A stretch of 64,000 nt of DNA from an uncultured Acidimicrobiia bacterium (GTDB taxonomy: Bacteria > Actinomycetota > Acidimicrobiia > Spongiisociales > UBA4744), in the NCBI GenBank assembly GCA_964633745.1, contig CAZWHZ010000002.1:5318-69317 (forward strand). The letters are read 5' to 3'. The notes beneath the pieces are model-generated. The model was not told the DNA's origin. It did not search any database and was given only the letters and a program-made list of their open reading frames with translations. A program made the translations under genes and the position numbers. Positions 3,791 through 59,376 of this stretch are shown piece after piece. Numbering within the stretch: the first letter of the stretch is position 1; each line of letters opens with the position of its first letter.

Positions 3791-3822
3791 CGAGTTCTGA
3801 GGTATCAGTCATCGGTGGAAGG
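3791..3822 (+). repeat. Type-1 heptad array (TCRGTYY) 3' of parB
   Basis: CGAGTTC TGAGGTA TCAGTCA TCGGTGG AAGG. The TCAGTCATCGGTGG end resembles the arrays at 12453 and 48649 (minus strand). Confidence 0.6.
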
Positions 3823-3886
3823 CTCGGCCCCGGGGTGGGGGAGGAGGGAACGGCAACGGAGTCCCGAAGCGGGGTTCGTGGCTGTG

Positions 3887-3935
3887 AATACCGATACGAG
3901 GTACCAGGTACCAGGTATTGAGGTGCAGGTCCAGG
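3887..3935 (-). repeat. Type-2 heptad array (CTNGTAY) 3' of trxA
   Basis: Minus strand reads CCTGGAC CTGCACC TCAATAC CTGGTAC CTGGTAC CTCGTAT CGGTATT. Starts 7 nt after the trxA stop. Confidence 0.7.
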
Positions 3936-3942
3936 CAACCCC

Positions 3943-4260
3943 TTACAGGAACTGGGCCAGCTCGGCTTCCATCGCGTGCTTGGGGCGGGCACCGACGATC
4001 CTTCGCTGCTCCCTACCTTCGTGGAACAGGATCATCGTCGGAATGCTCATGACGTCGTGTTCCGCAGCGAGGGTGGGCTGCTCGTCGACGTTGAGTTTCC
4101 CGATACGGATCTTGTCGGGATGCTCGCCGGCGATCTCGTCGAGGACGGGAGCGACCATCCGGCAAGGGCCGCACCACTCAGCCCAGAAGTCCACGAGAAT
4201 GGGGAGGTCACCGTTGGTGACGTCTGCAAAGTTGTCGGTGGTGACGGTGATGTTGTCCAA
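3943..4260 (-). CDS. trxA: Thioredoxin
   Basis: 105 aa with the WCGPC active site (FWAEWCGPCRMVAP). Confidence 0.95.
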   Translation of the reverse strand: MDNITVTTDNFADVTNGDLPILVDFWAEWCGPCRMVAPVLDEIAGEHPDKIRIGKLNVDEQPTLAAEHDVMSIPTMILFHEGREQRRIVGARPKHAMEAELAQFL

Positions 4261-4271
4261 CTGGGGACCTC

Positions 4272-5192
4272 CTACTCGTTTGCTTCCAGCCAGCGACGGG
4301 CGTCGATTGCCGCGCGTGCACCTGTCCCGGCGGCCGTGATTGCCTGACGGTACACGGGGTCGGCGACGTCCCCGGCGGCGAACACGCCGTCAAGTGACGT
4401 AGCGGTCGAGCTAGATTCCAGTATAAGGTAACCGACATCGTTCATCTCGAGCGCTCCAGCGAAGAGTTCGGTGTTGGGCTTGTGCCCGATTGCGACAAAC
4501 ACACCACTGATCGGCATCTCCGACACCTCGTTGGTCTTGACGTTGCGCATACGAACGGCCGTGACCTCTTCGTCGCCGAGCACCTCCTCGAGGACGGTGT
4601 CCCATATGACATTGATCTTCGGATGCTCGACAGCCCGCTTGGCCATGATTGCCGAGGCTCGAAACGCATCCCTGCGATGAACGAGATGGACCTTCGACGC
4701 GAACGTGGTGAGAAACAGCGCCTCTTCCATTGCCGTATCGCCCCCACCGACGACGATGAGCTCCTGATTACGGAAGAAGAACCCGTCGCACGTAGCACAC
4801 GATGAGACCCCTCGACCCAGCAGACGCTCTTCCCCGGGGATGCCGAGCCACATCGCGGAGGCACCGGTGGAGATGATGATCGACTTGGCAGTGTACGAGT
4901 CGGCTCCCGTCCACACCGTGTATGGGTACGACGTCAGATCGACCTGGGAGACATCGACGGTGAAGAGGCGTGCTCCGAAGCGCTCGGCCTGTTTGCGCAT
5001 CCGCTCCATGAGTTCGGGACCGAGAAGCCCATCCGGAAACCCAGGGAAGTTCTCGACTTCCGTGGTGAGCATCAGTTGACCACCGGCCTGGCTTCCTTCC
5101 AGGACCAGAGGGTTGTTGCCACCACGGGCGGCGTAGAGCGCCGCGGTCAGGCCGGCAGGGCCTGACCCGATGATGATGATGTCTTCAGTCAT
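4272..5192 (-). CDS. trxB: Thioredoxin-disulfide reductase
   Basis: FAD motif GSGPAGLTAALYAAR and redox-active CATCDG. Lies 11 nt upstream of trxA. Confidence 0.95.
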   Translation of the reverse strand: MTEDIIIIGSGPAGLTAALYAARGGNNPLVLEGSQAGGQLMLTTEVENFPGFPDGLLGPELMERMRKQAERFGARLFTVDVSQVDLTSYPYTVWTGADSYTAKSIIISTGASAMWLGIPGEERLLGRGVSSCATCDGFFFRNQELIVVGGGDTAMEEALFLTTFASKVHLVHRRDAFRASAIMAKRAVEHPKINVIWDTVLEEVLGDEEVTAVRMRNVKTNEVSEMPISGVFVAIGHKPNTELFAGALEMNDVGYLILESSSTATSLDGVFAAGDVADPVYRQAITAAGTGARAAIDARRWLEANE

Positions 5193-5469
5193 TGCCGTCC
5201 TTGGGCTTCCGCTTCAACCAGACCAACACCCCGGCGAGGATGAATAATCCCCCGAATGCCGCGTAGGCGCCTTCCACGGTCAGTGGAACCGCAACAGCCC
5301 TGAACACCGAGACAATCAAGAACACGAGGGCGATCATCGCAAGCGCACCCGCGACCGTCCACGCAAGCGCGAGACGGATCCCACGAGCGAAGCGGTCGAC
5401 GGTGAGCGAGCGGACTTTCGTCGCGATGCCTTCGAGGAAATCAGCGAATCGTGTGGCCAAGTCATCCAT
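5185..5469 (-). CDS. Small two-TM membrane protein (possibly Holin-X-like family), function unknown
   Basis: 94 aa with two hydrophobic helices. Its stop overlaps the trxB start by 8 nt (ATGACTGA), which implies co-translation with trxB. Confidence 0.6.
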   Translation of the reverse strand: MDDLATRFADFLEGIATKVRSLTVDRFARGIRLALAWTVAGALAMIALVFLIVSVFRAVAVPLTVEGAYAAFGGLFILAGVLVWLKRKPKDGND

Positions 5470-5496
5470 TGAGGTTCCGAGGATAGCGAAGCTGGC

Positions 5497-6195
5497 TCAG
5501 GGAGTGTCCGCGGGGATCTCCACCAGGAGGTCGCACGTGTCGCGATCGAAGACGAGTGCGGTTTCCGGGTAGACGTACATGACCGCTGTGATGCCGTTGT
5601 AGTCGACCTCGCTTGTTGTGATCGAGTCTTCGTTCAGGCGATCGCGAGCCTCGACGGCGCACCGGGTGGTGGTTGCCTCGCCTGGAACGGAGGACCTGAG
5701 ATCTTCGGCCTGAGCTGCGAGAAGTCGTTTGTCTTGGTTCAGGGTCTGATCGGGGAGTGTGGTGGTTGCCGGAGCAGCAGTGCTCTCGAACGCTTCCGGT
5801 GCCCGACTTCCTGCGTCGTCCGCCGAGTCGGCGGCGCCTTGGAGACTCTCGGTGTTCTGTCCCAGCCGGAGTGTCGCGGTGCCGGCGCCTCTCGGGAGAA
5901 TCGCGCTCGCCACGACGACGACGAGGGCGGCTGCCGCGGCGAAGGCCGGTGCCAGCCGCATCCACCGGGACCGGGACGGAGCTTGACGGATCGCCCGATG
6001 CAGTCTGGCACGCTCGATCGAAGTCATTGCGACGGGCGGAGCCTGCTTGAGGAGCGAGATCGCGGTGTGCTGTTCTTCCAGGCGGCGGCTGCACTCCCCA
6101 CACGCGTCGATCTCTGCCTTTGCGGCCGCGAGTTCCTGCCCGGACAGGCGGTGCTCTGCCACAGCGGCGATGCGATCGATGTCGTGTTCATGCAT
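5497..6195 (-). CDS. Anti-sigma factor (single TM, CxxC zinc-finger-like N-terminus)
   Basis: MHEHDIDR...IDACGECSRRLEE, then a TM helix (LAPAFAAAAALVVVVASAIL) and an extracytoplasmic domain. ATG 6195 overlaps the sigma-factor stop (ATGCATGA). Confidence 0.75.
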   Translation of the reverse strand: MHEHDIDRIAAVAEHRLSGQELAAAKAEIDACGECSRRLEEQHTAISLLKQAPPVAMTSIERARLHRAIRQAPSRSRWMRLAPAFAAAAALVVVVASAILPRGAGTATLRLGQNTESLQGAADSADDAGSRAPEAFESTAAPATTTLPDQTLNQDKRLLAAQAEDLRSSVPGEATTTRCAVEARDRLNEDSITTSEVDYNGITAVMYVYPETALVFDRDTCDLLVEIPADTP

Positions 6196-6769
6196 GGTCT
6201 TCGTCCTTTTGATGCTCCGAGGAGCCTCGGAAGTTCCCGAGGTATTCGGCAAGGAGTCGCCTACCTCGATAGGTGCGCGATTTCACGGTCCCGAGGGGGA
6301 GGGTGAGGATCTCTGCAACTTCCTCGAGGGCAAGACCGTCGATGTCGACGAGCATGACGACGCCCCGGAACTCCTCCGGTATCGAGGCGAGCGCATGGAG
6401 GATGTCGGGGCGGAGTTCAACGGAGTCGAGTTGGTCGTCGACGGAGGAGTCGGGGAGATCCGATCCCTCCGGTATTGGAACGACCTGGTGTCGCTTGCGC
6501 TTCCGGAGATGGTCATGGCAGGTGTTGACCGCAACCCGATAGAGCCAAGTGGAGAACTTCGAGCGACCCGAGTACTGGCCACCCTTTCGGTAGACCGTCA
6601 AGAAGGTGTCCTGTGTGGCATCGAGCGCGTCTTCGCGGCTGCCCATCATCCGGAGGCAGAGCCCGAAGATATGGTCCTCGTGGCGTGCCATCAGCTCATC
6701 GAACGCGGCGCCATCTCCACCAAGGAAGTCTGAGAGGAGCTCTTCGTCACGGAGCAAAGCGCACCTCAC
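6188..6769 (-). CDS. ECF (group 4) RNA polymerase sigma factor, SigM-like by context
   Basis: Region 2 (FDELMARHEDHIFGLCLRMMGSREDALDATQDTFLTVY) and region 4 (IPEEFRGVVMLVDIDGLALEEVAEILTLPLGTVKSRTYRGR). The start is uncertain: GTG 6769 is chosen, and the listed ORF runs to 6886 inside the upstream gene. Confidence 0.85.
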   Translation of the reverse strand: MRCALLRDEELLSDFLGGDGAAFDELMARHEDHIFGLCLRMMGSREDALDATQDTFLTVYRKGGQYSGRSKFSTWLYRVAVNTCHDHLRKRKRHQVVPIPEGSDLPDSSVDDQLDSVELRPDILHALASIPEEFRGVVMLVDIDGLALEEVAEILTLPLGTVKSRTYRGRRLLAEYLGNFRGSSEHQKDEDHA

Positions 6770-8045
6770 CGATGGACGTGTAGTAGCTGTCGTCTTGCTG
6801 GGGAAGTTCCGTGAGCCACAAGAGCCAGTAGCCGCCATCGCGTGATGGGAGTTGCAGCGTGATACTCCCGCCGGAGACGGTGCCACCCGAGATTCTTGAC
6901 CATCCTTCGATGTCGGGCTCGAAGGACGCCGCCCACATCAAGCTGTATGTCGTGCCATCCGAGGTGGATCGGGCTTCGAACGCTCTTGGTGTGCCCGCGA
7001 CGGAAAACACCACACCGACACCCTTCTTGATGAGTGGGAGCCGCGCCGAGTAGTGCTCCGTTCCCCACATGGTGGTCGGGTCACCATCGGTGAGCTTCTG
7101 CAGGTCCTCGTCGTGCTCGACGCCGTCCCCATAGGGGTCGAAGACTCGAACCTCCAGCAGAGAGAAGTCGGACGAGGGCGGCGCCGTGGTCGTGGTCGTT
7201 GTGGTCGTTTCAATCGCCGGGACTGTCGTGGACGTCGGAGGCCGAGCCGGGAACAGCGCCGGTGACTCGGATCCCGCGGTGAACAACGCGCCGAGGCCGA
7301 TGATGCCACCGGCGAGCACGAGAAGGATGACTGCCGGCGTCAACCACCGCCAGGTCCAGCCGGGTTCATGCTCTGACTCCGTGACGCTCGGCGCGCCCTG
7401 AAGGGCCGAGGCGAGCCTGCGCGCGTCGAGCACCCCTGCTCGCGCGTCGAGCAAAGCCCGATCGACCGTCGGAGAGACGCCATCGACGATTTGCGAGGGC
7501 GGGGCTGACAGTGTCGTGCTCCCGGTGAGGCACGCGTCCAGCGTCTCTGCCAAAGCCGCGACATCCTCGGAGGAACCCGCAACGACAGGCAGGCGTCCGA
7601 AGCTTCCCAGCTTCGCCGGGTGTGCAGATGAGAAGTAGATGGCTGAGGGGTCGATCGCACCGTGGATCACCGATGACGCGTGGAGGGCCTCGAGCGCCCC
7701 GGCGAGTCCGGCGGCGTTCGTAATGAACTCGTTGGCTGTCATCGGTTCGCCGGCGTCGAGCCGGTCCCGCATGGTGACCCCGCCCGTCCATTCGGTTACC
7801 GAGTAGGCGCCGTCGGGTACCTCGGCAGCTGCATAGACGCTCGCCAGGTGGATGTGCGACACCGCAGCGACCGCACGCATTGCGTCGAGAAACTGACCAC
7901 GCCGCTCGGTGCCGGTCTCCGGTCCGAGTACCCGGATGAGTACAGGGCGATCGAGCGAGGTATCGGTGGCGAGCCACTGCTCGATGTCGCCGTCGCGACC
8001 GAGCCGCTGTTCGAGGCGGTAGCGGGTTGGAAGCGGCGGCGGCAA
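6747..8045 (-). CDS. Stand-alone MviN-type pseudokinase: TM helix plus extracellular beta-rich domain
   Basis: Kinase-like fold with the catalytic residues replaced: VLIRVL for VAIK, HGAIDPSAI for HRDxKxxN, LGSFG for DFG. Followed by one TM helix (WLTPAVILLVLAGGIIGLGALF), a Thr-rich linker and a C-terminal domain. Confidence 0.75.
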   Translation of the reverse strand: MPPPLPTRYRLEQRLGRDGDIEQWLATDTSLDRPVLIRVLGPETGTERRGQFLDAMRAVAAVSHIHLASVYAAAEVPDGAYSVTEWTGGVTMRDRLDAGEPMTANEFITNAAGLAGALEALHASSVIHGAIDPSAIYFSSAHPAKLGSFGRLPVVAGSSEDVAALAETLDACLTGSTTLSAPPSQIVDGVSPTVDRALLDARAGVLDARRLASALQGAPSVTESEHEPGWTWRWLTPAVILLVLAGGIIGLGALFTAGSESPALFPARPPTSTTVPAIETTTTTTTTAPPSSDFSLLEVRVFDPYGDGVEHDEDLQKLTDGDPTTMWGTEHYSARLPLIKKGVGVVFSVAGTPRAFEARSTSDGTTYSLMWAASFEPDIEGWSRISGGTVSGGSITLQLPSRDGGYWLLWLTELPQQDDSYYTSIGEVRFAP

Positions 8046-8083
8046 GGCGCGTCCTCTCGGCGGATCTCAGAACACTACAAGCG

Positions 8084-8857
8084 TCATGTACTGCCGCCGC
8101 GCAGTATGGCGAGCCGGTCGTCGAGGTGGGTGAACCCCTCGGTGAGATAGAGGTTGGAGGCAGCGTCATTGTTGCCGAGGGTGTTGAGCAGCATCTGGCG
8201 CGCTCCGTGTTGCCGGGCCCAGCGGAGGGATGCGCGCACCAGCGCCCGTCCGATACCTCGATGTTGAACGGAGGGTGCGACGGCGATCCGCTGGAGGTAC
8301 CCCGCACCTGCACCTGCACCGACGATCGAGAAGCCGAGCAGGTCGCTGTCGCGTGCGGTGAGCACAACCGCGGAGGGAGTGGCAGTGGCCGCCTCCTTGA
8401 GCCCTTGGGCATCGAGACGCCAGAACGGTGCGAACGCCTGGCGGTCGACCTCCTGCACCTCGTTCCAATCCACTTGGTGTTCCTCGACGATGGACATCTC
8501 AGGATCGGGAACCGCGGTTGCCAGATCTCTCCCATACACATCGAGCCACTCGAACATCTCGAATCCCGCGTCGCTCCACATCCGCATCGATGAAGTCGGG
8601 AGCGGCGGAGAGAGCACCGACGAGACTCCAAGTGTGTTCAGATGGGCAACGCTCAACTCCAAGAAGGCCGAGGAACCCCGGACAATCGTGAGGTGCGCGT
8701 CAGGGACGTCTGCGTTCCACGGTCGGGCCACTGCTTTCGAGAGCCCGTGCCGGAGAACGACGACGCCCGGCCAGTTGCCTGTGTGTCGCACGATGGTCCC
8801 CCTCGCCACCCTGCAATCGTACCTTGGGCCGTGTCCGGTATGCCAAAGTAGGGGCAT
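8084..8857 (-). CDS. GNAT family N-acetyltransferase
   Basis: Acetyl-CoA motif LQRIAVAPSVQHRGIGRALV in the C-terminal half. The start is uncertain; the listed ATG abuts the divergent deacetylase ATG. Confidence 0.75.
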   Translation of the reverse strand: MPLLWHTGHGPRYDCRVARGTIVRHTGNWPGVVVLRHGLSKAVARPWNADVPDAHLTIVRGSSAFLELSVAHLNTLGVSSVLSPPLPTSSMRMWSDAGFEMFEWLDVYGRDLATAVPDPEMSIVEEHQVDWNEVQEVDRQAFAPFWRLDAQGLKEAATATPSAVVLTARDSDLLGFSIVGAGAGAGYLQRIAVAPSVQHRGIGRALVRASLRWARQHGARQMLLNTLGNNDAASNLYLTEGFTHLDDRLAILRGGST

Positions 8858-9863: not shown

Positions 9864-9916
9864 CATCAAGAAGTCGTTCGTGTGGCCGATACCTCTTGTA
9901 TCAATAGGAAGAGAGC

Positions 9917-12438: not shown

Positions 12439-12470
12439 TCGGTCATCGGTTCTCAGTCATCGGTAGGAAC
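12439..12470 (+). repeat. Type-1 heptad array directly after the cca stop
   Basis: TAG|TCGGTCA TCGGTTC TCAGTCA TCGGTAG GAAC. Confidence 0.8.
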
Positions 12471-12513
12471 AGCGCGGGGACCACGAGGCCGTAGGGCGCG
12501 CCTCGTCGACAGC

Positions 12514-12541
12514 CGATCGTCGGAAACCGCGAACCGCCAAC
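12514..12541 (-). repeat. Inverted partner array (CGGTT subtype)
   Basis: Plus strand CGATCGT CGGAAAC CGCGAAC CGCCAAC, which on the minus strand is GTTGGCG GTTCGCG GTTTCCG ACGATCG. Tail to tail with the array at 12439. Confidence 0.6.
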
Positions 12542-12552
12542 ACAGCAAGCCC

Positions 12553-12586
12553 TTGCATAGTCATGCAGCTATACGTATAGTCACCT
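12553..12586. promoter_or_regulatory. ArgR operator (tandem ARG boxes) overlapping the argC promoter
   Basis: TTGCATAGTCATGCAGCTATACGTATAGTCACCT has TGCAT/ATGCA half-sites. By hand count, 25 of 34 positions match the site upstream of argR. TATAGT (12576-81) ends 10 nt before the ATG and no SD is visible. Confidence 0.75.
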
Positions 12587-12590
12587 GCTC

Positions 12591-41371: not shown

Positions 41372-41388
41372 GCCCGCTTTTGCGGGCC
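41371..41388 (+). terminator. Hairpin immediately after the dnaB stop
   Basis: GGCCCGC-TTTT-GCGGGCC, 7-bp GC stem, overlapping the last base of the TAG. Confidence 0.6.
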
Positions 41389-41391
41389 GTC

Positions 41392-41416
41392 TTGGTCATG
41401 GGTTGTCGGTAAGACC
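41392..41416 (+). repeat. Degenerate type-1 array after the dnaB terminator hairpin
   Basis: TTGGTCA TGGGTTG TCGGTAA GACC. Confidence 0.5.
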
Positions 41417-41653
41417 GTTGTCCTGGTGTCCCGTGTTGTTCGAGGTCGCGTAGGCCGGTCACAGCCTGCTGGAGGCCATCGGTACCGACCGACACCGAAA
41501 CAGGCTCCTCGTTGCACGGGCCTGTTGGCCTCTTCGTGAGTGCAGCGTAGGGGGGCTCTCGTTGCGGTAGGAGGCTGTGTGCGGCAGCTGGTCGGCTGCC
41601 GGCTGAGAGAGGCTCGCCTGGCCCTGCGGTCTGGTGTGGTTCCAGGCTGCTTG

Positions 41654-41670
41654 CTGAAGACTGAAGACTG
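41654..41670 (-). repeat. Type-1 array, inverted orientation
   Basis: Plus strand CTGAAGA CTGAAGA CTG, which on the minus strand is CAG TCTTCAG TCTTCAG. Confidence 0.65.
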
Positions 41671-41692
41671 GCGGTTCGCTTGGCGAACCGCC
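41670..41692 (+). other. Perfect 10-bp stem-loop abutting a heptad array
   Basis: GGCGGTTCGC-TTG-GCGAACCGCC directly after CTGAAGACTGAAGACTG. Confidence 0.55.
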
Positions 41693-45319: not shown

Positions 45320-45343
45320 GTGGTTGGCCCATGGACCAACCAC
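45320..45343 (+). terminator. Hairpin after the fadA stop
   Basis: GTGGTTGG-(8 nt)-CCAACCAC, 8 nt after the TGA. No U-tract. Confidence 0.45.
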
Positions 45344-45354
45344 GTAAGGGGCAT

Positions 45355-45368
45355 CTAGTACCTCGTAT
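45355..45368 (+). repeat. Type-2 heptads 3' of fadA
   Basis: CTAGTAC CTCGTAT. GTACCTCGTA (45358-67) is the exact reverse complement of 45412-45421. Confidence 0.6.
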
Positions 45369-45411
45369 GGGCCCGGCCGCCCCGCGGTCGAAGAGCGGGT
45401 CGCGAATGTGG

Positions 45412-45424
45412 TACGAGGTACGGC
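45412..45424 (-). repeat. Type-2 heptads directly 3' of the EamA transporter gene
   Basis: Minus strand after the stop reads GCC GTACCTC GTACCAC. Confidence 0.55.
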
Positions 45425-47580: not shown

Positions 47581-48345
47581 ATGGGGTACCTCCTGGTGAC
47601 CAACGACGATGGTGTCGACTCTCCCGCGCTGCTTCCGTTTGTCCGGGCGTTGCAGGACATCGAGGAGGTGAAAGTGGTGGTGCCCGACCGGGAACGAAGC
47701 TGGATCGGGAAGGCCATTACCCGTTTCGGGGAGATCAACGTTACGAGGATCGTGCGTGACGGGGTCGAGATAGCGGTCGCCGATGGGTTCCCTGCCGACT
47801 GCACCCAGCTCGGTGTGCACTCCCTGTTCGGGGAGCCGCCGGAGATGGTCGTCTCGGGAATCAACATCGGTCTCAACGACAGCCTTGCCTTCTTCCTTTC
47901 GAGCGGGACCGCGGGGGCTGCTGCTGAGGGTTGGATCGCCGGTATTCCTGCGATTGCCTTTTCTACAGGCGTGGCACATGATCATCGGAGTTGGGCGAAG
48001 CGCGTGTGGGCGGGCGAGGAGCCTGAGCAATGGGTTCGCGCAGCCGCGGTGAGCGCGGATATCGTTGCGACAACTCGGCGAGATGGCTTCCCTGGAGCGG
48101 ATCTCTTGAACGTGAACTTCGACACGAACGCCACGATCGACACGCCCCGGGTGTTCACCGACCTCGCCAAAGTCGGATACGACCGGATCTTCAGGGAGGT
48201 GCGGCCCGGCGTCTTCATCCACGACTTCTCGACCGGATTACGGGTGCAAGGTGACCTGTCGGGAACGGATGTCGAGGCCGTCGGAAACGGGCTCGTGTCG
48301 ATCACACCGGTTCGCCTCGCCCACGCGGTGAGGCTCACTCCGTGA
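47581..48345 (+). CDS. surE: 5'/3'-nucleotidase SurE
   Basis: MGYLLVTNDDGVDSPAL N-terminus (the DD metal site) and GINIGLN. Start at ATG 47581 inside the listed ORF 47338..48345. Confidence 0.85.
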   Translation: MGYLLVTNDDGVDSPALLPFVRALQDIEEVKVVVPDRERSWIGKAITRFGEINVTRIVRDGVEIAVADGFPADCTQLGVHSLFGEPPEMVVSGINIGLNDSLAFFLSSGTAGAAAEGWIAGIPAIAFSTGVAHDHRSWAKRVWAGEEPEQWVRAAAVSADIVATTRRDGFPGADLLNVNFDTNATIDTPRVFTDLAKVGYDRIFREVRPGVFIHDFSTGLRVQGDLSGTDVEAVGNGLVSITPVRLAHAVRLTP

Positions 48346-48346
48346 G

Positions 48347-48377
48347 CCGGTTTTCGGTTCTCAGTTTCCGGTAGGAC
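48347..48377 (+). repeat. Type-1 heptad array 1 nt after the surE stop
   Basis: CCGGTTT TCGGTTC TCAGTTT CCGGTAG GAC. Confidence 0.8.
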
Positions 48378-48493
48378 GCCCATTCTGCTTGTTCCCCGGC
48401 CGCGTGCTCACCGAAGACCGATGACTGACAAGAACCGCGAGCGAAGCAAGCACTCGCCCCGCGGTCTTGCGTTGTTCTGCGTCGCGTTCCACC

Positions 48494-48521
48494 TGATGAC
48501 TGAAGATTGAGGGCTTGAGGC
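48494..48521 (-). repeat. Degenerate type-1 array, inverted
   Basis: Plus strand TGATGAC TGAAGAT TGAGGGC TTGAGGC. Confidence 0.55.
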
Positions 48522-48553
48522 TCTCAGAGCGAGTCGGGCCATTCCGCGAGACC

Positions 48554-48606
48554 TTCGGCTCCCGGTTCGCCGTTCTCGGTTGCCGGTTCCGGGTTCTCGG
48601 TAAGAC
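48554..48606 (+). repeat. Type-1 (CGGTT subtype) array, seven units
   Basis: TTCGGCT CCCGGTT CGCCGTT CTCGGTT GCCGGTT CCGGGTT CTCGGTA AGAC. Confidence 0.8.
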
Positions 48607-48648
48607 ACTCGCCCTACGGTCTCGTGTTCTTCTGCGTCGCGTTCTCAC

Positions 48649-48682
48649 CGATGACTGAAGACTGAGGACTGAAGACTGTTCT
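48649..48682 (-). repeat. Type-1 heptad array abutting the dcd stop
   Basis: Minus strand after the TGA reads AGAACAG TCTTCAG TCCTCAG TCTTCAG TCATCGG TGAGAAC. Confidence 0.85.
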
Positions 48683-49332: not shown

Positions 49333-50115
49333 GTGGTGGACTTCGATGCGGTTTCAGTCGAGATCGGCGAAGATGCCGTCGGGGTCGTGACGCTCAACCG
49401 TCCTGACAAGCTCAACACCTTCAACACACCGCTCGCTACGCAGTTCGACGCTGCCCTGAGACGCCTCGACGAGGACGGGCGCGTGCATGTGATCATCCTT
49501 CGGGGAGCCGGCAGGGTGTTCTGCGCCGGTATCGATCTCAACGAGTTCCCGGGCAAGTCGGAGCAGGAATACAGGGCTTGGACCGATCTGATGGAGCGCC
49601 CGCTCGCCACGATGATGGACATCTCCAAGCCGATCATCGCCCAGGTGCATGGCGTAGCGGTCGCCAATGGGGCAGGCACGGTTGCAGCTGCCGATCTGGC
49701 GATCGCAGCGGAAAGCGCCCGTTTCGGCCTGACGGCGATCAACGTCGGACTCAACTGCGTGGGTCCGGTCATTCCGGTCTCCAGATCGGTTGGACGCAAG
49801 AAGGCGCTCGAGTTGCTCTATTTCGGCGAGCTGATCTCTTCGGCTACCGCTGCCGAGATCGGGTTGATCAACCGGGTCGTTCCTGATGACGCTCTCGAAG
49901 AAGAGACCCGATCATGGGCGAGGAAGCTCGCCGAGAAGAGCCCTCTCGCGCTGCGATCCGCAAAGACGTCCTTCTATGCGTCGGCCGATCTCGCCTTCGG
50001 AAGGGCGATGTCGTACATGAACGGCGCGTTCGCCGCCCTCTGCAGCACCGACGACGCGGCTGAGGGCATCGCCGCTTTCAAAGAGAAGCGACCGCCGGTG
50101 TGGCAAGGTTCCTAG
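49333..50115 (+). CDS. Enoyl-CoA hydratase (crotonase family)
   Basis: [12 protein letters not shown] and [10 protein letters not shown] oxyanion-hole motifs. Confidence 0.85.
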
Positions 50116-50147
50116 CGGACCGAAACCGGCTCCGCTGGAAACCGTAT

Positions 50148-50168
50148 CTCGTACCTTGTACCTCGTAT
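50148..50168 (+). repeat. Type-2 heptad array 3' of the enoyl-CoA hydratase gene
   Basis: CTCGTAC CTTGTAC CTCGTAT. TACCTCGTATGG is shared with 45359-45370. Confidence 0.7.
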
Positions 50169-50234
50169 GGTTGGCGGCAGTGGGGGAACGCGCACGATGG
50201 CGCGTGCGGGAAGCCGTCAGCTGTGCATTGACGG

Positions 50235-51977: not shown

Positions 51978-51999
51978 AGCTAGGAGGACCAGGGAACGG

Positions 52000-52070
52000 A
52001 GCGGGTGAGGGGAATCGAACCCCCGCTACAAGCTTGGGAAGCTCGTGTTCTACCACTGAACCACACCCGC
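52000..52070 (-). tRNA. tRNA-Gly (anticodon CCC)
   Basis: Hand-folded cloverleaf. Acceptor GCGGGTG/CACCCGC, D arm GTTC-AGTGGTA-GAAC, anticodon arm CGAGC-TTCCCAA-GCTTG, T arm GGGGG-TTCGATT-CCCCT. CCA is not encoded. TAGAAT lies about 10 nt upstream of the 5' end. Confidence 0.9.
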
Positions 52071-53078: not shown

Positions 53079-53344
53079 CGCGGAGCGAAACCGGCTGCGA
53101 ACAGAACCGAGAGCGTGAAACGTCTGCTCGATCCTCCGTCGTGAGGCCGGCCAGCGCCGGCTGGGAAGAAGTCCGATCCCGTGACCGTCGTCGACAACTC
53201 TGACGGCTCGTACACGGCGGCGGCGCAAGATGCGCCTCGGTCAACGGAAGATGGGCATTTCGCTCGGCGGAGTGATAGCATCTGGTACTGCTACGTGGGC
53301 TACCGCCTGCGCAGCGAGCATCCAGGGTGTTGCTCCAGGGACGA

Positions 53345-53380
53345 GGGACACGACTCGCGAGGGCCGTGTCCCTTTCTTTA
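53345..53380 (+). terminator. Intrinsic terminator-like hairpin with T-tract
   Basis: GGGACACG-(12 nt)-CGTGTCCC followed by TTTCTTTA on the plus strand. It abuts the stop of the minus-strand 66-aa ORF. Confidence 0.55.
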
Positions 53381-53578
53381 CCGGGACAGGCTGACGATCG
53401 ACCACGCAGTGATGACGATCCCGGTGAGCATGAGGAACCATGCTCTCCCCACATAGAGGTGCTCCGGCTCATGGCGCCTACCGCGTACGAGTGCGACCAG
53501 GTTTCCAAGGATCATCGCTGTGCCAATGGCGAGTACCAGAAGCGCGACGGTCTCATTGAGGCTGAGTAGTCCCTCCAT
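53378..53578 (-). CDS. Small two-TM membrane protein (66 aa)
   Basis: ORF with two clear hydrophobic helices. It competes with an overlapping plus-strand ORF, 53181..53456. Confidence 0.45.
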   Translation of the reverse strand: MEGLLSLNETVALLVLAIGTAMILGNLVALVRGRRHEPEHLYVGRAWFLMLTGIVITAWSIVSLSR

Positions 53579-53651
53579 GTCGGCGCCACGCTACTACCCG
53601 GGCCACTCGATGATCGGACCGTGTGAGAACCTGCGGCCGTACAATGCCGGC

Positions 53652-54551: not shown

Positions 54552-55386
54552 AGCATCCGCTCCCGCGTCGTCGGCCAATCTGGGCCCCGGGTTCGATACG
54601 CTTGCGATGGCACTCGACCTTCGATGTAGCGTCACAGCGGTTCGTTCCGAAGAGTGGGCTGTGCGCCATGTCGGACCTGAGATTCCCGAAGGGGCGGACG
54701 CCGTACTCGCGGCTGCGATGGCCGCTACCGATGAGCCGCTCTCACTCACAGTTCGCAACGACATCCCCATCGGCCGCGGGCTGGGATCGTCTGCCGCGGC
54801 AACGGCTGCGGGGGCCGCCGCGGCGATGCTGGCCGTGGGGAGTGCTGTCACACGAGCTCGTATCTTCGAGATCGTTACGAACGCAGAGGGTCACCCCGAC
54901 AACGCTGCAGCCACCGTGTTCGGCGGTCTCGTATCGGTCACAACGGGTGGCGAGGTGGTTTCGCTCGACCTCTCTTCGGACATAGAGGTCGTGATCGCCG
55001 TTCCGGACCAGAAGCTCTCGACGGAGCTCGCTCGGAGGGTTCTCCCGGACAGGATCGATCGAGGGGTTGCCGTCCGCACGCTTCAGCGGTTGGCGGTCCT
55101 GATCGAAGGCTTGAGGACAGGAGACGCACGGATTCTCGAATCTGCGGGTGGTGACGAACTCCATGAAGCTCCCCGGGCGCATCTCAATTCGTATGCCGAG
55201 CCGCTGATGACGGCTGCTCGCGCAGCGGGAGCGCTTCACGTCTGCTGGAGCGGCGCGGGTCCATCCATCCTTGCCTTGACGGATTCGGCAACCAGGGAGT
55301 CGGTCGCCACGGCGATGGGCAGCGCGCTTGGCGGCATGGGCGTCGTCTCGAGGCCACGCGTCGACCTGCAAGGGCTGGTCCTTTGA
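54544..55386 (+). CDS. thrB: Homoserine kinase
   Basis: SSANLGPGFD and GHMP motif PIGRGLGSSAAA. 8-nt overlap with the CDF gene. Confidence 0.9.
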   Translation: MSEASAPASSANLGPGFDTLAMALDLRCSVTAVRSEEWAVRHVGPEIPEGADAVLAAAMAATDEPLSLTVRNDIPIGRGLGSSAAATAAGAAAAMLAVGSAVTRARIFEIVTNAEGHPDNAAATVFGGLVSVTTGGEVVSLDLSSDIEVVIAVPDQKLSTELARRVLPDRIDRGVAVRTLQRLAVLIEGLRTGDARILESAGGDELHEAPRAHLNSYAEPLMTAARAAGALHVCWSGAGPSILALTDSATRESVATAMGSALGGMGVVSRPRVDLQGLVL

Positions 55387-55456
55387 ACGTTTTCGGCTTG
55401 CGAACCGGGGCCCGACCGGGCAAGCTGGTGACCTCAACCCCGAAGTAGAGGTGTGG

Positions 55457-55546
55457 ATGGGTTCCCTCATCAAGAAGCGACGCAAGAAGATGTCCAAGCA
55501 CAAGTACCGCAAGCGTCGCAAGGCCAACCGCCATAAGAAGAAGTAG
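55457..55546 (+). CDS. Ribosomal protein bS22-like (29 aa)
   Basis: MGSLIKKRRKKMSKHKYRKRRKANRHKKK is hidden inside the listed ORF 55328..55546. It matches the MGS.IKKRRK.MSK.KHRK pattern of actinobacterial bS22. A strong hairpin terminator follows. Confidence 0.8.
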   Translation: MGSLIKKRRKKMSKHKYRKRRKANRHKKK

Positions 55547-55561
55547 GACCCGGAGGTCTCG

Positions 55562-55589
55562 GGAGGTCCGGCTTGGCCGGACCTCCTTT
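55562..55589. terminator. Bidirectional hairpin terminator between bS22 and the DUF5362-like gene
   Basis: GGAGGTCCGGC-TTG-GCCGGACCTCC (11-bp stem) followed by TTT. Lies between convergent genes. Confidence 0.7.
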
Positions 55590-55597
55590 GCGTTGTG

Positions 55598-56008
55598 CTA
55601 CTCGAAGGTGGCCCCGTTGCGGAAGGCGGAAACGAGGGCGGCTCCGAAGAACAGGATCCCGATGACCGCCAGAATGATACCGATCAGTGAGACGATGCCG
55701 GTGATCAGGAAGTAGGTCTTCAGCTTGTCTTGTGACTTCAGGAAGCTGGCAGCGTCGCCGGTCTCGTGTGCCGACTCAACGGCGTTGCCCGATTGCCACA
55801 GGAGGACGCCGAGCCAGATCGGAAGCCATGCGAAGACGATTCCCACGATCGAAATGGCGGCCAGTGCGCCGCTCACGATCGAGACCACTCCGAGAAGCTT
55901 TATCCAGGTCTTCGACTCGTACAGCGGACGCGCCGCCTGGCCTACGGATATCGAGTCGGTCGGCGCGCTCGGTGGCGGGCCAAATCCTTCCGGATAGCTC
56001 ATGATCAC
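55598..56008 (-). CDS. Hypothetical membrane protein (DUF5362-like)
   Basis: Pro-rich N-terminus and three TM helices. Its start overlaps the copA stop (4 nt). Confidence 0.55.
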
Positions 56009-58191
56009 TCCCTCTCTCGCGCCGACACGCCCATTACCTGGAAGTTCCGCAGTCGTAACGAGTTGGTGACCACCGACACGCTGGACGTGGCCATGGCCGC
56101 TGCGGCGAGCATCGGGCTGATGATCCCGAGCGCGGCGAGAGGAATCATCGCCGCGTTGTAGGCGAACGCCCAGAACAGGTTCTGCTTGATCGTTCGGAAC
56201 GTTGCCCTTGCGAGTTTCAACGCAACAGTCACGAGAGCAGGGTCGCCGGACATCAAGATCACGTCTCCGGCCTCGATCGCTACGTCCGTCCCCGTACCGA
56301 TCGCGATTCCCAAGTCTGCCTGCGTCAGAGCGGGAGCATCATTGATGCCATCACCGACGAACGCGACCACCGTACCGTCTCCTTGAAACCGTCGAACCTG
56401 CTGGGCCTTCTCACCGGGAAGCACGTTCGCAACGACATCGTCGATGTTGAGAACAGACGCGATGGCCTTGGCGGTCTCCTCGTTGTCTCCGGTGATCATG
56501 CCGACGCGGACCCCCATTGCCACGAGGTCAGAAACTGCACCGATGGCGTGGCTGCGGAGCGTGTCGGCAACGGCGATCACGCCCTGCGCCCGACCGTCCC
56601 AGCCGACCAGGAACGCCGTCTTGCCAGACTGCTCGAACCGCGATGCAGCGTCCGCGCACTCGGGTGGGATGATGAGGCCGGCACGCTCGAAGAGGGTTGC
56701 TCGGCCAACATACACCTCCCGGCCGTCAACCACCCCATGGACACCTGATCCGGAGAGACTCTCGAACGACGTGGGACGGACAACGTCGAGATCCCGCGTC
56801 TCCGCGGCGAGCACCACCGCGCGCCCGATCGGGTGCTCCGATGACGATTCGACGGACCCGGCAAGCTGAAGAAGCATCGACTCGTCCCCGACCGCCGCTA
56901 CATCGGTGACCTGCATGAGGCCGTTTGTCAGGGTGCCGGTCTTGTCGAAGAGAACCATTCCAACTGCTCGTGATCGCTCGAACAGCTCGGCGCCCTTGAA
57001 AACCACCCCGAGGCGGGCTCCCCGTCCGCTCCCGACCATGATCGCGGTCGGCGTAGCAAGGCCAAGCGCACAAGGGCATGCGACCACGAGTACCGCGACA
57101 CCGGTGGTCAGCGCGCGGGCGAGGTCTCCGCTCGACACGAAGTACCACACGACGGACGTCAGCACAGCGATACCGATCACGATCGGGACGAAGATGCCCG
57201 CGACCCTGTCGGCGAGTTTCTGCACCGGTGCCTTCGTCGCCTGTGCCTCCTCGACCAGGTGCACGATCTGCGCGAGCGCAGTCTCGTTGCCGATTCGGGT
57301 TGTCCTGATGAGGAGGTTGCCCTGCTGGTTGATCGTTGCCCCGAACACACCGTCGCCGGCGCCCTTGTCGACCGGCACGGACTCGCCAGTCAGCATGCTC
57401 TCGTCCAGGGAGGAGGATCCTTCGATGATCGTCCCATCGGTCGGGACCTTCTCTCCGGGGCGAACGATCATCAGATCTCCCCGGCGCAGCTCCGCTATCG
57501 GGAGCATCACCTCTGCACCGTCCCGCTGGACCCTTGCCTCTTTCGCTCCGAGCTCCATGAGCGTGCTGATCGCCTGAGAAGCGCGACCCTTCGCTCTGGC
57601 CTCGAAGAACCTGCCGAGGAGGATGAACGTGACGATTGCCCCCGCCGTGTCGAAGAACAGCGGCTTGCCGTCGAAGAACGCCCAGACCGAGTAGCCGTAC
57701 GCGGCGAGGGTGCCCACCGAAACGAGCGTGTCCATGGTCGCGTCGAACGAGCGGAGCCGTTTGAAGGTGATGCGGTGGAACTGGAAACCGAACAGGAACT
57801 CGACGGGGGTGACGAGGATCCACTGAAGCACCCTGGACGTGTTGCCCTTCGCCGCCATCGCGAGAATCACGACGGGAATCGTGAACAATGCCGCACCGAT
57901 GAAGTTGCGGAGTTGGGTCCGTTCCTCCTCGTTGAAGCGTTCGGTGACGTCGATGCGTTCTTGGTCGGGCAGGACCTCGTGCATGTCGTAGCCGATCTTC
58001 CGCACGGCGTCGATCAGGTGGTCCACGTCGATCTCCGGTGCAGCGACGACGCGCGCCTCCGAGCCGGCGAAATTGACGATTGCCTGGTCGACTCCGTCCT
58101 GCTTCGAGAGGATGCGTTCGATGCGGATCGCGCACGACGCGCAGGTCATCCCCTCGACGTCGAACGTTCGGTCGAGTGTGTCAGTGTCCAT
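56005..58191 (-). CDS. copA: Copper-translocating P1B-type ATPase
   Basis: N-terminal GMTCASC metal-binding domain, TGES, CPC ([11 protein letters not shown]), DKTGTLT and GDGINDAP. Start at ATG 58191 (or 58200), overlapping the copZ stop. Confidence 0.95.
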
Positions 58192-58393
58192 CGACCTCAT
58201 AGCCCTGGTCCTCGATCGCGTCCACAATCGCAGCCAGTTCGAGTGACGCGTCGTCCCAGGTGACGTCGACGGTCTTTGCTTCAATATGAACTTCCACGGA
58301 GTCGACACCTTCGAGCGGCCGAACCGCGCCTTCGATGGACATCTTGCAGTGAGCGCAGGAGATGTCGGGAATGGAGAGGGTCATGGTGCTCAT
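58181..58393 (-). CDS. copZ: Copper chaperone CopZ (HMA domain)
   Basis: [22 protein letters not shown] (CxxC). ATGA overlap with the csoR stop. Confidence 0.9.
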
Positions 58394-58695
58394 TCGACCT
58401 CCAAGTCGATCCTTGGCGCCGGTCCCGTGACCGCCGCCGTGTACTTCATCGTTTCCATCAGCTCGTCGACGATCTCTGCCGCCCGGTTGTCGTGGATGGC
58501 TTCGGCGACGCACGTTTCGAGGTGGTTCTGCAGCACGATCCTGTTCACCCGTTCGAGGGAGGCCTGCAGTGCCGATACCTGCTTCATCACGTCAGGGCAG
58601 TATCGGTCGGCCTCGACCATGGAGATCACTCCATCGAGATGGCCTCGAATCGTCTTGAGGCGGATCAGTGCGCGTTGTTTGTGCTCATCCTTCAT
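58390..58695 (-). CDS. csoR: Copper-sensing transcriptional repressor CsoR
   Basis: RLKTIRGHLDGV..YCPDV...NHLETC, carrying the C-H-C copper ligands. Confidence 0.9.
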   Translation of the reverse strand: MKDEHKQRALIRLKTIRGHLDGVISMVEADRYCPDVMKQVSALQASLERVNRIVLQNHLETCVAEAIHDNRAAEIVDELMETMKYTAAVTGPAPRIDLEVE

Positions 58696-58710
58696 GAGGT
58701 TCTACAGCTT

Positions 58711-58729
58711 ACCCCACCCGGGGTGGGGT
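58711..58729. promoter_or_regulatory. Probable CsoR operator
   Basis: ACCCCAC-CCGGG-GTGGGGT, a G/C-tract inverted repeat 16 nt upstream of the csoR ATG. Resembles the known CsoR box style (TACCC-N-GGGTA). Confidence 0.65.
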
Positions 58730-58833
58730 GGGGAAAACGACCATGAGTGAGGCCCCGGAGGAGGGGACTTCCGGGGCCTCGAACCGGCGCCTGGGTGGAG
58801 GGGGGAACTGGGGCGCCGAGATGTGGTCTTGTC

Positions 58834-59028
58834 TCACGTGCCTTCGGGGACGACCCTGCCGCGCACACGAGGAAAACGAACTGGAGCGTGGGTGTAGCAG
58901 TACTCACGCCGGTTGTACATCGAGAGACGGGTGTCGCAACCCTTCTCGGCACACACTCTGTCTTCACCGTACTTGCGGGACGGCCGTAGACCGCCTTTGA
59001 GTCGTGCGCCTTTCAGTGTGTCAGCCAT
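58834..59028 (-). CDS. Small basic protein with a putative zinc-ribbon (64 aa)
   Basis: ORF with CAEKGC...YCYTH (C-x4-C ... C-x2-H). Lies upstream of and co-oriented with csoR. Family not recognised. Confidence 0.45.
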   Translation of the reverse strand: MADTLKGARLKGGLRPSRKYGEDRVCAEKGCDTRLSMYNRREYCYTHAPVRFPRVRGRVVPEGT

Positions 59029-59218
59029 GTTGCCCTCTGTCTCGTGGGAGGAGTGCCGGATACGCTACCCGACCCTCTTTGGGATTGCACCTATATCGAC
59101 GTTCTGAATGGTGTTTTTATTCCGCGATCACGATTCTGTCAAGCAAAGTGTGCGCGATGAAGGTGAACAGGGCGTGAACGCCCCCTAAAGAAATCGTGAG
59201 AATTGGCGGGCTCCGCCC

Positions 59219-59250
59219 GCAGTCTTCAGTCTTCAGTCCTCAGTAGGGAG
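59219..59250 (+). repeat. Type-1 heptad array with no upstream plus-strand gene
   Basis: GCAGTCT TCAGTCT TCAGTCC TCAGTAG GGAGC, preceded by the small hairpin GGCGG-GCT-CCGCC. Confidence 0.85.
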
Positions 59251-59341
59251 CACGACCTGGAGCAACGCGAGATTGAGGGGCGTTCCTCTTCGGATAGCTG
59301 ACAGCCGAGAACTCACGACCAGCTCACGAAGCGAGCCTCCC

Positions 59342-59376
59342 ACCGAAAACCGAGAACCGAAAACCGAGAACCCCCG
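59342..59376 (-). repeat. Inverted CGGTT-subtype array ending 20 nt upstream of the SDR start
   Basis: Plus strand ACCGAAA ACCGAGA ACCGAAA ACCGAGA ACCCCCG. This is a perfect 14-nt unit repeated twice. Confidence 0.85.

Follow-up and report, generated by a model that had tools for sequence, protein, structure and literature searches.

Which kind of element are the short heptanucleotide repeats that recur behind the genes of an uncultured Acidimicrobiia bacterium? The DNA analysed here, referred to as the window, is a 64-kb stretch of NCBI assembly GCA_964633745.1 (contig CAZWHZ010000002.1, positions 5,318 to 69,317). It contains two families of tandem 7-nt units, TCRGTYY (type 1) and CTNGTAY (type 2), in about 20 arrays spread over 12 loci. 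A sequence-only reading of the window had described a family of arrays scattered over operon ends, and the positions of the arrays bear this out. The arrays are a new example of a described class of bacterial intergenic heptanucleotide repeats, the long simple-sequence repeat (LSSR), short tandemly repeated repetitive sequence (STRR) or Xanthomonas-Nostoc type. As for their origin and role, our tentative preference, judged from sequence, is that they may be slippage-generated repeat elements in the pyrimidine-rich "tail" position of 3′-end modules.

Heptanucleotide arrays are confined to non-coding DNA

The window has a G+C content of 63% throughout. Genes were called with a self-trained codon model, which left 9.6% of the window non-coding; these calls match the JGI gene calls wherever both overlap, and the gene calls in all fetched loci are also our own. 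Tandem Repeats Finder returned nine period-7 arrays in the 64 kb, all intergenic, and a lag-7 autocorrelation scan returned seven. Exact tandems of two or more TCRGTYY units occur at six sites, compared with 0.08 expected from first-order Markov shuffles, and exact tandems of two or more CTNGTAY units at four sites, compared with 0.01 expected. Together, the two patterns give 10 sites of head-to-tail 7-nt tandems against an expectation of 0.09. The non-coding fraction holds all 10 exact arrays and all four strict arrays. At equal stringency, no array of period 8–12 is present in the window, and every period-6 array is coding. These counts confirm that the heptanucleotide arrays are real and far above chance.

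When degenerate copies are included, 13 type-1 and five type-2 arrays are clear (18 in all), and two further arrays, at 53079 and 55387, are weak. All are non-coding and 17–52 nt long, and the number agrees with the at least 19 arrays that had been reported in the gaps. Every array is also present in the JGI, Logan and ENA assemblies of the same organism, which are 99.4–99.98% identical to the window. Because the arrays recur in independent assemblies, a check that had been proposed with their description, they are no assembly artefact.

Arrays follow stop codons in the sense of the upstream gene

The arrays mark the ends of transcription units and are tolerated only in the untranslated DNA there. 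Read on the coding strand, an array begins 0–68 nt beyond the stop codon of 12 genes: parB, trxA, cca, the DUF4388 gene, the AP-endonuclease-2 gene, ino1, dnaB, the thiolase gene, the EamA gene, surE, dcd and the enoyl-CoA hydratase gene. Pfam supports the names that these genes had been given, with the gene termed nfo belonging to the AP-endonuclease-2 family. The short distance from the stop codon also stands, and only its upper value changes, from 57 nt to the 68 nt of the parB array.

The polarity towards the preceding gene was upheld. Twelve arrays in the window follow the sense of the gene directly upstream, as do two in about 8 kb of further same-genome DNA (L215), and a single weak array (at 53079) is antisense to the gene it follows (14 versus 1; two-sided binomial p ~0.001). 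The ratio is 9 to 1 (p ~0.02) when each face-to-face pair is taken as one event. Such pairs lie at 45353/45408, 48349/48404, 48555/48641 and 59219/59335, and positions 1–164 of L215 hold another convergent pair that follows the sense rule. It is the only new array locus in 17.7 kb of extra same-genome sequence. The 9.4 kb of L219 upstream of the window contain no clear heptamer array. Placement after stop codons holds for the 14 sense arrays and fails for two arrays that lie upstream of genes (59335–59372 and 41653–41671); within the long surE-dcd spacer, several arrays are internal to the spacer and likewise depart from a strict after-stop position.

GC-rich stem-loops adjoin about half of the arrays

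Roughly half lie on the 3′ side of such a GC-rich stem-loop, the edge of which is 0–11 nt from the array. At the tightest junctions the stem-loop runs directly into the first repeat, as after dnaB (GCCCGCTTTTGCGGGC followed by CGTCTTGG..), after surE (GGCTCACTCCGTGAGCC followed by GGTTTTCGG..) and at 59205 (GGCGGGCTCCGCCCGC followed by AGTCTTCAG..). The 38 nt upstream of the arrays have a mean folding energy of -13.7 kcal/mol, compared with -8.9 kcal/mol for the downstream flank (Wilcoxon p=0.005) and -9.0 kcal/mol for random intergenic segments (Mann-Whitney p=0.0005). A folding energy of -12 kcal/mol or below is found in eight of 16 upstream flanks and in 21% of controls. The stem-loops differ from one another in sequence. 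A frequent build is symmetric and consists of a stem-loop, a T-rich array, a centre, an A-rich array and a second stem-loop (48332–48457 and 59205–59395).

Each third of the window was compared with shuffles, and none has an excess of canonical hairpin-plus-U-tract terminators, which agrees with the claimed scarcity of U-tract terminators at operon ends. Compared with an intrinsic terminator, the array sites show the stem-loop in about half of cases and mostly lack the U-run directly 3′ of the stem. At the gathering threshold, Rfam 15 matched only a tRNA-Gly (52000–52070) in the window and none of the arrays. Unusually unstructured RNA was rejected as a description of the arrays, since their predicted unpaired probability is 0.35 and that of other intergenic segments 0.39. 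One long stable hairpin of convergent arrays is not supported in this genome either: Z scores range from -1.95 to +0.71 over seven pairs, and the two strands of the surE-dcd spacer score -1.1 and 0.0. Beside the thiolase stem-loop, strains differ by two double substitutions, AT to GG at 45331–45332 in the loop and AG to CC at 45347–45348 just 3′ of the stem, which are the sole intergenic differences there in several assemblies.

Sense-strand arrays contain 34% U and 13.5% A, compared with 18–19% each in other intergenic DNA, and 28% C against 25% G; YC dinucleotides occur at 0.227 per nt, compared with 0.165 in the comparison set. The sequence-only reading had suggested that regularly spaced YC dinucleotides could fit the primary sites of the Rho hexamer, in which case the arrays would be Rho-loading (Rho utilization, rut) sites. 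The composition has precedents: Rut peaks of E. coli are enriched in U and YC and poor in G (PMC9499579), and a bias of U over G is the best discriminator for M. tuberculosis Rho (PMC13650167). Actinobacteria score highest for Rho dependence, with a stem-loop upstream of the termination zone as the expected layout (PMC13613805), and the arrays often lie just downstream of a stem-loop in a window where canonical terminators are not enriched. However, the geometry is poor. E. coli Rho holds 10 nt of RNA per protomer and 58–61 nt in all, and dC15 is insufficient for termination (bioRxiv 10.1101/2022.08.29.505764), whereas the arrays have a period of 7 and a length of 17–52 nt. C barely exceeds G, and the TCGGTTC and CTGGTAC units have as many C as G. 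The predicted structure of the arrays is no lower than that of controls, a purine-rich partner within 30–40 nt prevents a long pyrimidine tract between convergent genes, and repeats of the opposite sense lie just before start codons, here and in other phyla. A rut site of about 60–80 nt that is C-rich, G-poor, weakly structured and spaced at 10 nt per protomer does not describe the arrays, and a Rho-loading role appears improbable from their sequence. Rho might act in a looser way, through the bias of U over G and the surplus of YC.

Type-1 arrays share an ending and a flanking module

Most type-1 arrays in the window close with YCRGT-RRG-RRC, which has 10 matches against 2.7 expected by chance, and type-2 arrays have the common ending CTCGTAT-GG. 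The conserved type-1 ending that had been claimed is thus a property of this genome; in other phyla only 12 of 146 arrays have it. The same count rejects a stop-like last unit (TAA, TAG or TGA) as a general rule, although it holds in the window, and sequence inspection found no consistent frame between the stop-like unit and a real stop codon.

A semi-conserved module of about 45 nt, GCGAC..ACGAGACCGTAGGGCG, follows type-1 arrays in 5–6 copies, as detected by blastn and an nhmmer profile. The profile also matches the orthologous dcd tail of a related species. No shared module was found next to type-2 arrays or pairs. A conserved RNA fold of array plus module is not supported, as there is next to no covariation and a consensus energy of -4.6 kcal/mol. 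The surE-dcd spacer contains a 155-nt tandem duplication (48451–48522 and 48606–48677, 72 nt aligned at 81% identity); each copy holds an array and a module, and the related species represented by locus L135 has one copy.

These features raise the alternative of a miniature mobile element, also put forward before, or of a mosaic like the repetitive extragenic palindromic (REP) sequences and bacterial interspersed mosaic elements (BIMEs) of enterobacteria, with inverted arms around a conserved centre and spread by a transposase or an enzyme like the REP-associated tyrosine transposase (RAYT). The repeated module lends it limited support, as do the conserved last unit, the inverted pairing of the arms and the tandem duplication of the element. 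The sites are BIME-like too: both kinds of element lie at operon ends and in convergent gaps, end up in the 3′ regions of transcripts and have inverted arms, to which the type-1 module may add a conserved linker. REP arms, however, are conserved palindromes, whereas the arms here are tandem heptads; the adjoining stem-loops all differ, the shared module has no supported fold, and type-2 arrays lack the module altogether. Compared with a miniature inverted-repeat transposable element, the arms are inverted and variable in length. No presence/absence polymorphism, and hence no empty site, occurs among the strains sampled, and no obvious target-site duplications were seen, although no systematic search for them was made. 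No transposase or RAYT is among the genes with a Pfam annotation in the window and the flanking DNA. The element after dcd is orthologous in the related species L135 and was therefore inherited vertically. A mobile origin is very unlikely on this evidence.

Arrays slip by whole units and turn over between species

Five assemblies that are 99.9% identical were compared over about 16 kb. The single indel among them is the loss of one GGTACCA unit behind trxA, in two assemblies, and an A/G transition segregates inside the array at 59335–59372. Since exactly one 7-nt unit differs between near-identical strains, the arrays slip. The variation in unit number that had been suggested as a check between strains is thus present in the trxA array.

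Relatives were sought by scanning metagenome contigs with Dcd, which gave at least 80 loci. Among the matches listed, arrays are almost confined to the 20 loci with the Dcd nearest to the query. One relative, L135, is syntenic with the window (Dcd 92% identical, DNA 68–86% identical). Its dcd array is reduced to remnants while the module is kept, and after the hydratase gene it has CCTCGGT CCTCGGC in place of the CGTAYCT units of the window. Other relatives have different heptamers directly past the dcd stop: TAGTCCN (L140), CCGGTTA (L145), TAGCCAG (L148) and AGTCATC (L154). Among relatives, the 7-nt period and the position persist, and the unit sequence does not. These comparisons show that slipped-strand mispairing adds and removes whole units, and that the arrays turn over rapidly between species. 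The earlier preference for a transcript function "rather than simple microsatellite slippage" does not hold in that form, given the one-unit indel and the other heptamers at the same gene ends in relatives.

Slippage of this kind is what neutral or selfish microsatellites would show. On that account, slippage favours 7-nt units in many bacteria, the arrays survive where they are harmless, and location and orientation are by-products of selection against arrays in coding, promoter and ribosome-binding sites. Copy-number variation among strains, the lack of unit conservation at orthologous sites and the absence of a conserved RNA fold all agree with it. It also has a literature: among long simple-sequence repeats, heptanucleotides were reported to be the most frequent in many prokaryotes, with slippage of the polymerase as the suggested cause (Mrazek 2007, as summarised in PMC4679880 and PMC4692102). 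The studies consulted found no function for such repeats. Neutrality does not predict the 14-to-1 polarity relative to the upstream gene, nor the abutting stem-loops, the conserved last unit and the module. Nor would it lead one to expect arrays that begin so few bases past the stop codon, as they do even between convergent genes, where no promoter restricts placement. We consider a wholly neutral explanation rather unlikely.

Turnover of the units bears on a further possibility, in which the arrays would serve as heptad iterons, bound as double-stranded DNA by a ribbon-helix-helix or nucleoid-associated protein. An analogy is the omega repressor of plasmid pSM19035, which binds contiguous 7-bp repeats, both direct and inverted. 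The units vary too much, inside the genome and among its close relatives, to suit a single sequence-specific protein, and a polarity tied to the direction of transcription would be unexpected for such sites. An iteron role is extremely unlikely.

Polar inverted pairs occur in many phyla

The type-1 pattern was searched as 3.5 units with one genome per species and gave at least 120 loci. Among the matches listed, most are from Acidobacteriota, with others from Planctomycetota, Chloroflexota, Bacteroidota, Cyanobacteriota and further phyla. Where two arrays of opposite strand lie within 150 nt, the T-rich array comes first in 25 cases and the A-rich array in seven (two-sided p ~0.002), or roughly 22 versus 3 when counted by genome. 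The T-rich arm begins 2–22 nt past a stop codon in 15 of the 25 pairs. Thirteen pairs lie between co-directional genes, where the A-rich arm often ends 1–5 nt before the next start codon. Polar inverted pairs of the TCAGTYY type just past stop codons thus occur in many phyla. In Acidobacteriota and other phyla, the inverted pairs form near-perfect hairpins of -30 to -90 kcal/mol. Of the 125 arrays listed, the T-rich strand lies within 50 nt upstream of a same-strand start in two, compared with about 26 for its complement. Pairs in L001–L120 often bridge the gap between two co-directional genes (e.g. L017 5694–5785, L087 3321–3402 and L026 7518–7610), with the first arm 2–8 nt past the stop codon and the second 1–5 nt before the start codon. 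Such a gap-bridging layout would suit translational coupling or intercistronic processing.

The TCAGTYY unit is not unique among heptamers. In IMG/VR viral contigs, the degenerate patterns of this unit and of a reversed control each gave at least 120 loci, exact four-unit patterns of TCAGTYY and of the reversed control occur at 19 and 7 loci, and genomes with type-1 arrays carry many other heptamer units. The commonness of the control and the diversity of units within the same genomes are what the neutral account would lead one to expect; the 25-to-7 excess of one pair order is not. Some of the viral contigs (L223–L464) have up to 10 arrays (e.g. L365).

The order of the arms has a possible explanation in proteins that bind single strands. 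In this alternative each unit of an array would be occupied by one single-strand-binding protein whose footprint is 7 nt, the most plausible being a cold-shock-domain protein (Csp). The pyrimidine arm would be bound as it leaves the polymerase, which would control the pairing of the complementary arm or stem-loop and tune read-through or downstream translation. B. subtilis CspB binds the heptanucleotide GTCTTTG/T, with C favoured at position 3 and T at positions 2, 4 and 6 (PMC1904285). Read from GT, type-1 units are akin to it (GTCTTCA, GTCCTCA, GTTCTCG and GTTTTCA). The pyrimidine arm is transcribed first, as predicted (25 to 7), and MacGregor independently proposed Csp proteins for TAACTGA repeats (PMC4679880). 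The likeness, however, is to one protein of another phylum, and type-2 units (GTACCTG) and units of relatives (TAGCCAG, GGTAACC) fit the consensus poorly. The unit sequence is not conserved at orthologous sites, and there is no csp gene within the window. By this analogy, Csp platforms are hardly more than an outside candidate for the arrays of this genome.

A broader form of the idea would extend to all phyla concerned. It supposes a slippage-tunable device past stop codons, in which pyrimidine-rich GTYYTCR heptads, close in sequence to the cold-shock-domain site GTCTTTG/T, are each bound by one protein with a 7-nt footprint on leaving the polymerase, and the bound protein would decide the pairing of arm or stem-loop and set read-through, 3′-end stability or translation of the next gene. 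It would explain why the T-rich arm comes first (25 to 7) and starts 2–22 nt past stop codons, and why, in Acidobacteriota and other phyla, only 1–5 nt often separate the end of the purine-rich arm from the following start codon. As an argument by analogy, this device seems quite improbable.

The arrays belong to a described class of intergenic repeats

The sequence-only reading had not recognised a described class. A literature search for the exact repeat strings found no bacterial paper, but a study of Xanthomonas and Nostoc describes the same closeness to an ORF (open reading frame), polarity, convergent pairs, typical size of about four units and variability between species (PMC4692102). 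The arrays belong to that class because position, polarity, pairs and variability match its account. Rehm et al. (2015) reported about 185 GGGAATC arrays per Xanthomonas genome, 89–93% of them intergenic, which lie about 28 nt from the upstream ORF and about 160 nt from the downstream ORF (PMC4692102). In Xanthomonas and Nostoc, the arrays favour the coding strand where they lie downstream of an ORF and the non-coding strand where they lie upstream of one; Xanthomonas has 70–75 convergent inverted pairs per genome, and a typical array has four units (PMC4692102). The length and sequence of the Xanthomonas GGGAATC and Nostoc GGGGA(C/T)T arrays vary between close species, and no function was found (PMC4692102). 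The window shows the same layout of intergenic 7-nt tandems that are nearer to the upstream ORF, polar to its coding strand and paired in inverted fashion between convergent genes. It differs in lineage and in its units, which are not G-rich and cannot form the G-quadruplexes on which that study focused. Further features of the present genome are its two families of units, the conserved last unit, the module beside type-1 arrays and the abutting GC-rich stem-loops.

A second relative is the TAACTGA repeat of marine Beggiatoaceae, cyanobacteria and Bacteroidetes, which lies just upstream of start codons in intergenic arrays of 2–6 copies and is phylogenetically scattered (MacGregor 2015; PMC4679880). 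Its reverse complement, TCAGTTA, is close to TCAGTYY. The strand with ACTGA in the mRNA sense is also found upstream of starts at 59335–59372 and in many arrays of other phyla, where the complement just upstream of starts reproduces the Beggiatoa pattern. However, most Beggiatoa arrays lie before starts, whereas most of the present arrays lie past stops with the complementary strand transcribed, and only one inverted pair was reported in Beggiatoa. The units here read AGACTGA, GGACTGA and GAACCGA on that strand, and only the array at 59335–59372 lies close before a start (23 nt), so that the arrays are not TAACTGA repeats in the strict sense. With LSSRs and the cyanobacterial STRR heptamers, they share a 7-nt excess in the non-coding DNA of particular lineages, including some Actinobacteria; as summarised in the two papers above, the surveys of those repeats describe no gene-relative polarity, stem-loop abutment or flanking modules.

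A proposed tail position in 3′-end modules

We tentatively favour the explanation that the arrays are slippage-generated repeats in the tail position of 3′-end modules. They would fill, and probably act as, the pyrimidine-rich single-stranded tail of such modules in a host that lacks canonical U-tracts. Either the stem-loop and the tail would act together in termination, or the stem-loop would guard the 3′ end and the array would form the zone beyond it in which termination or exonuclease trimming begins. The face-to-face layout would be two 3′-end modules placed back to back, and the 7-nt period would be the mutational signature of slippage, with no protein reading it as a ruler. A U-rich tail is usually missing from the 3′-end stem-loops of actinobacteria, and trimming can bring a 3′ end back as far as a stem-loop (PMC13613805); the tail reading fits that report.

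Several observations weigh against this explanation. Six sense arrays, those behind cca, the DUF4388 gene, the AP-endonuclease gene, the EamA gene, trxA and parB, have no upstream stem-loop, and the two arrays upstream of genes noted above are not at 3′ ends. Only three stem-loop-plus-array sites pass a threshold of 5 T in 8 bases, so the tails are far below working U-tracts in U, and the arrays are not predicted to be more single-stranded than intergenic RNA elsewhere. The stem-loop association is absent in other phyla among the matches listed and was rejected as a general rule. Single arrays in those phyla lie in the sense orientation within 20 nt of a gene end in 24 cases versus 16, which is not significant, and they divide 39 to 46 by the pyrimidine-rich strand. 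The polarity statistic covers about 82 kb of one genome. We infer every functional step from sequence, and a purely neutral origin with positional filtering would account for much of the same data.

Features of the window and its surroundings

The coordinates of the arrays, stem-loops and module copies are collected in Table 1.

Table 1. Repeat arrays, adjoining stem-loops and module copies in the window (window coordinates).
Feature	Coordinates	Strand	Context and evidence
Weak type-1 array TATCAGTCATCGGTGGAAGG	3803..3822	+	68 nt beyond parB stop
Type-2 array CTGGTAC CTGGTAC CTCGTAT CGG	3891..3914	-	After trxA; copy number varies among strains, one GGTACCA fewer in L122 and L125
Type-1 array ending TCGGTAGGAAC	12439..12470	+	Begins at first base past cca stop
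Module copy ..GGTAGGAAC..ACGAGGCCGTAGGGCG	12457..12503	+	blastn; nhmmer E=3.7e-5
Type-1 array ending TCAGTAAGAGC	26425..26455	+	4 nt past stop of DUF4388 gene
Type-1 array CAGTCCT x4.4	31289..31322	+	15 nt past AP-endonuclease-2 stop
Type-2 array	31359..31380	-	After ino1; 6 nt past stem-loop
GC-rich stem-loop GGGCGGGCTTCGCCCGCCC	31387..31405	-	Immediately past ino1 stop; -19.6 kcal/mol
Stem-loop GCCCGCTTTTGCGGGC	41372..41387	+	Immediately past dnaB stop; -19.9 kcal/mol
Degenerate type-1 array ending TCGGTAAGAC	41388..41415	+	Abuts dnaB stem-loop
Module copy, inverted relative to dnaB array	41413..41452	-	blastn E=3e-5; nhmmer E=6.7e-5
Type-1 array CCAGTCTTCAGTCTTCAGC	41653..41671	-	About 90 nt upstream of fadB-like gene; abuts stem-loop
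Stem-loop GGCGGTTCGCCAAGCGAACCGCC	41670..41692	-	Precedes array 41653-41671; -20.7 kcal/mol
Stem-loop GTGGTTGGCCCATGGACCAACCAC	45320..45343	+	Past thiolase stop
Type-2 array CTAGTAC CTCGTAT GG	45353..45370	+	After thiolase gene; inverted pair with 45408-45424
Type-2 array	45408..45424	-	Begins at first base past EamA stop
Stem-loop GGCTCACTCCGTGAGCC	48332..48348	+	Overlaps surE stop
Type-1 array ending CCGGTAGGAC	48349..48377	+	Abuts surE stem-loop
Type-1 array	48404..48436	-	Faces 48349-48377; abuts stem-loop 48437-48457
Stem-loop GCGAGTGCTTGCTTCGCTCGC	48437..48457	-	Abuts array 48404-48436
Module copy	48450..48499	-	Inside first copy of 155-nt tandem duplication; nhmmer E=7e-9
Short type-1 array	48486..48509	-	Precedes module copy 48450..48499
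Longest array, TCGGYTC-type units, period 7/14/21, ending TCGGTAAGAC	48555..48606	+	Faces 48641-48678
Reference module copy GGTGAGAACGCGACGCAGAAGAACACGAGACCGTAGGGCGAGTG	48604..48654	-	nhmmer E=2.7e-11; orthologous L135 copy E=6.6e-9
Type-1 array ending TCGGTGAGAAC	48641..48678	-	4 nt past dcd stop
Stem-loop AGCGGACCGAAACCGGCTCCGCT	50114..50136	+	Overlaps enoyl-CoA hydratase stop; -23.6 kcal/mol
Type-2 array CGTATCT CGTACCT TGTACCT CGTATGG	50143..50170	+	6 nt past stem-loop 50114-50136
Weak degenerate array-like stretch	53079..53125	-	Just past Rce1-like stop; sole antisense case
Stem-loop GGCGGGCTCCGCCCGC	59205..59220	+	Folding prediction
Type-1 array ending TCAGTAGGGAGC	59219..59251	+	Abuts stem-loop 59205-59220; between divergent genes, no called stop before array
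Diverged module copy	59241..59285	+	Outside profile training set; nhmmer E=0.018; blastn
Type-1 array, TCGGTTY units	59335..59372	-	Faces 59219-59251; + strand purine-rich, 23 nt upstream of short-chain-dehydrogenase ATG 59396; A/G single-nucleotide polymorphism inside
Stem-loop, GAGCCGC..GCGGC on + strand	59376..59395	-	Between array 59335-59372 and ATG

The gene order of the window includes yidC-jag-rsmG-parA-parB, trxB-trxA and rpsF-ssb-rpsR-rplI-dnaB, and ino1 is present. Upstream of the window, L219 1–9400 carries dnaA-dnaN-recF-DciA-gyrB-gyrA on the opposite strand. There, rnpA-yidD-yidC run up to and into the window, the start of which is about 1 kb from the dnaA promoter and the oriC region. 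This gene order, with ino1 and the bS22-like ORF described below, points to Actinomycetota.

Two small ORFs were also noted. The first (55457–55546, + strand) encodes 29 residues rich in Lys and Arg, MGSLIKKRRKKMSKHKYRKRRKANRHKKK, bears the JGI label PF08213 (COX24_C) and is followed by a stem-loop, GGAGGTCCGGCTTGGCCGGACCTCC plus TTTGCGTTGTG; we take it to resemble the actinobacterial small ribosomal protein bS22. The second (58834–59028, - strand) encodes 64 residues with cysteines, ..CAEKGCDTRLSMYNRREYCYTH.., has no Pfam match and is also a gene called by JGI. It is divergent from the dehydrogenase gene, and an array pair lies in between.

Similar AT-rich stretches precede argC (~12540–12590, TTGCATAGTCATGCAGCTATACGTATAGTCACC) and the Arg-repressor gene (~19090–19125, TTGCATGACTATGCAGCCATGCGTATGATTACC), and by their sequence they look like ArgR operator boxes. 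Past the DUF4388 gene, a 568-nt gap (26456–26988) overlaps a minus-strand ORF (26616–27104), the C-terminal third of which alone matches DUF4870; this ORF may be a miscalled or damaged gene.

Implications for intergenic heptanucleotide repeats

The layout known from Xanthomonas and Nostoc recurs in this genome with units that are unable to form G-quadruplexes. Because the units are not G-rich, the shared layout is independent of G-quadruplex formation. The arrays sit where the U-tract of a terminator would be, in a lineage without U-tracts. What had been a vague "microsatellite excess" can thereby be recast as testable hypotheses. For annotation, the arrays flag the ends of transcription units and sites at which copy number varies among strains.

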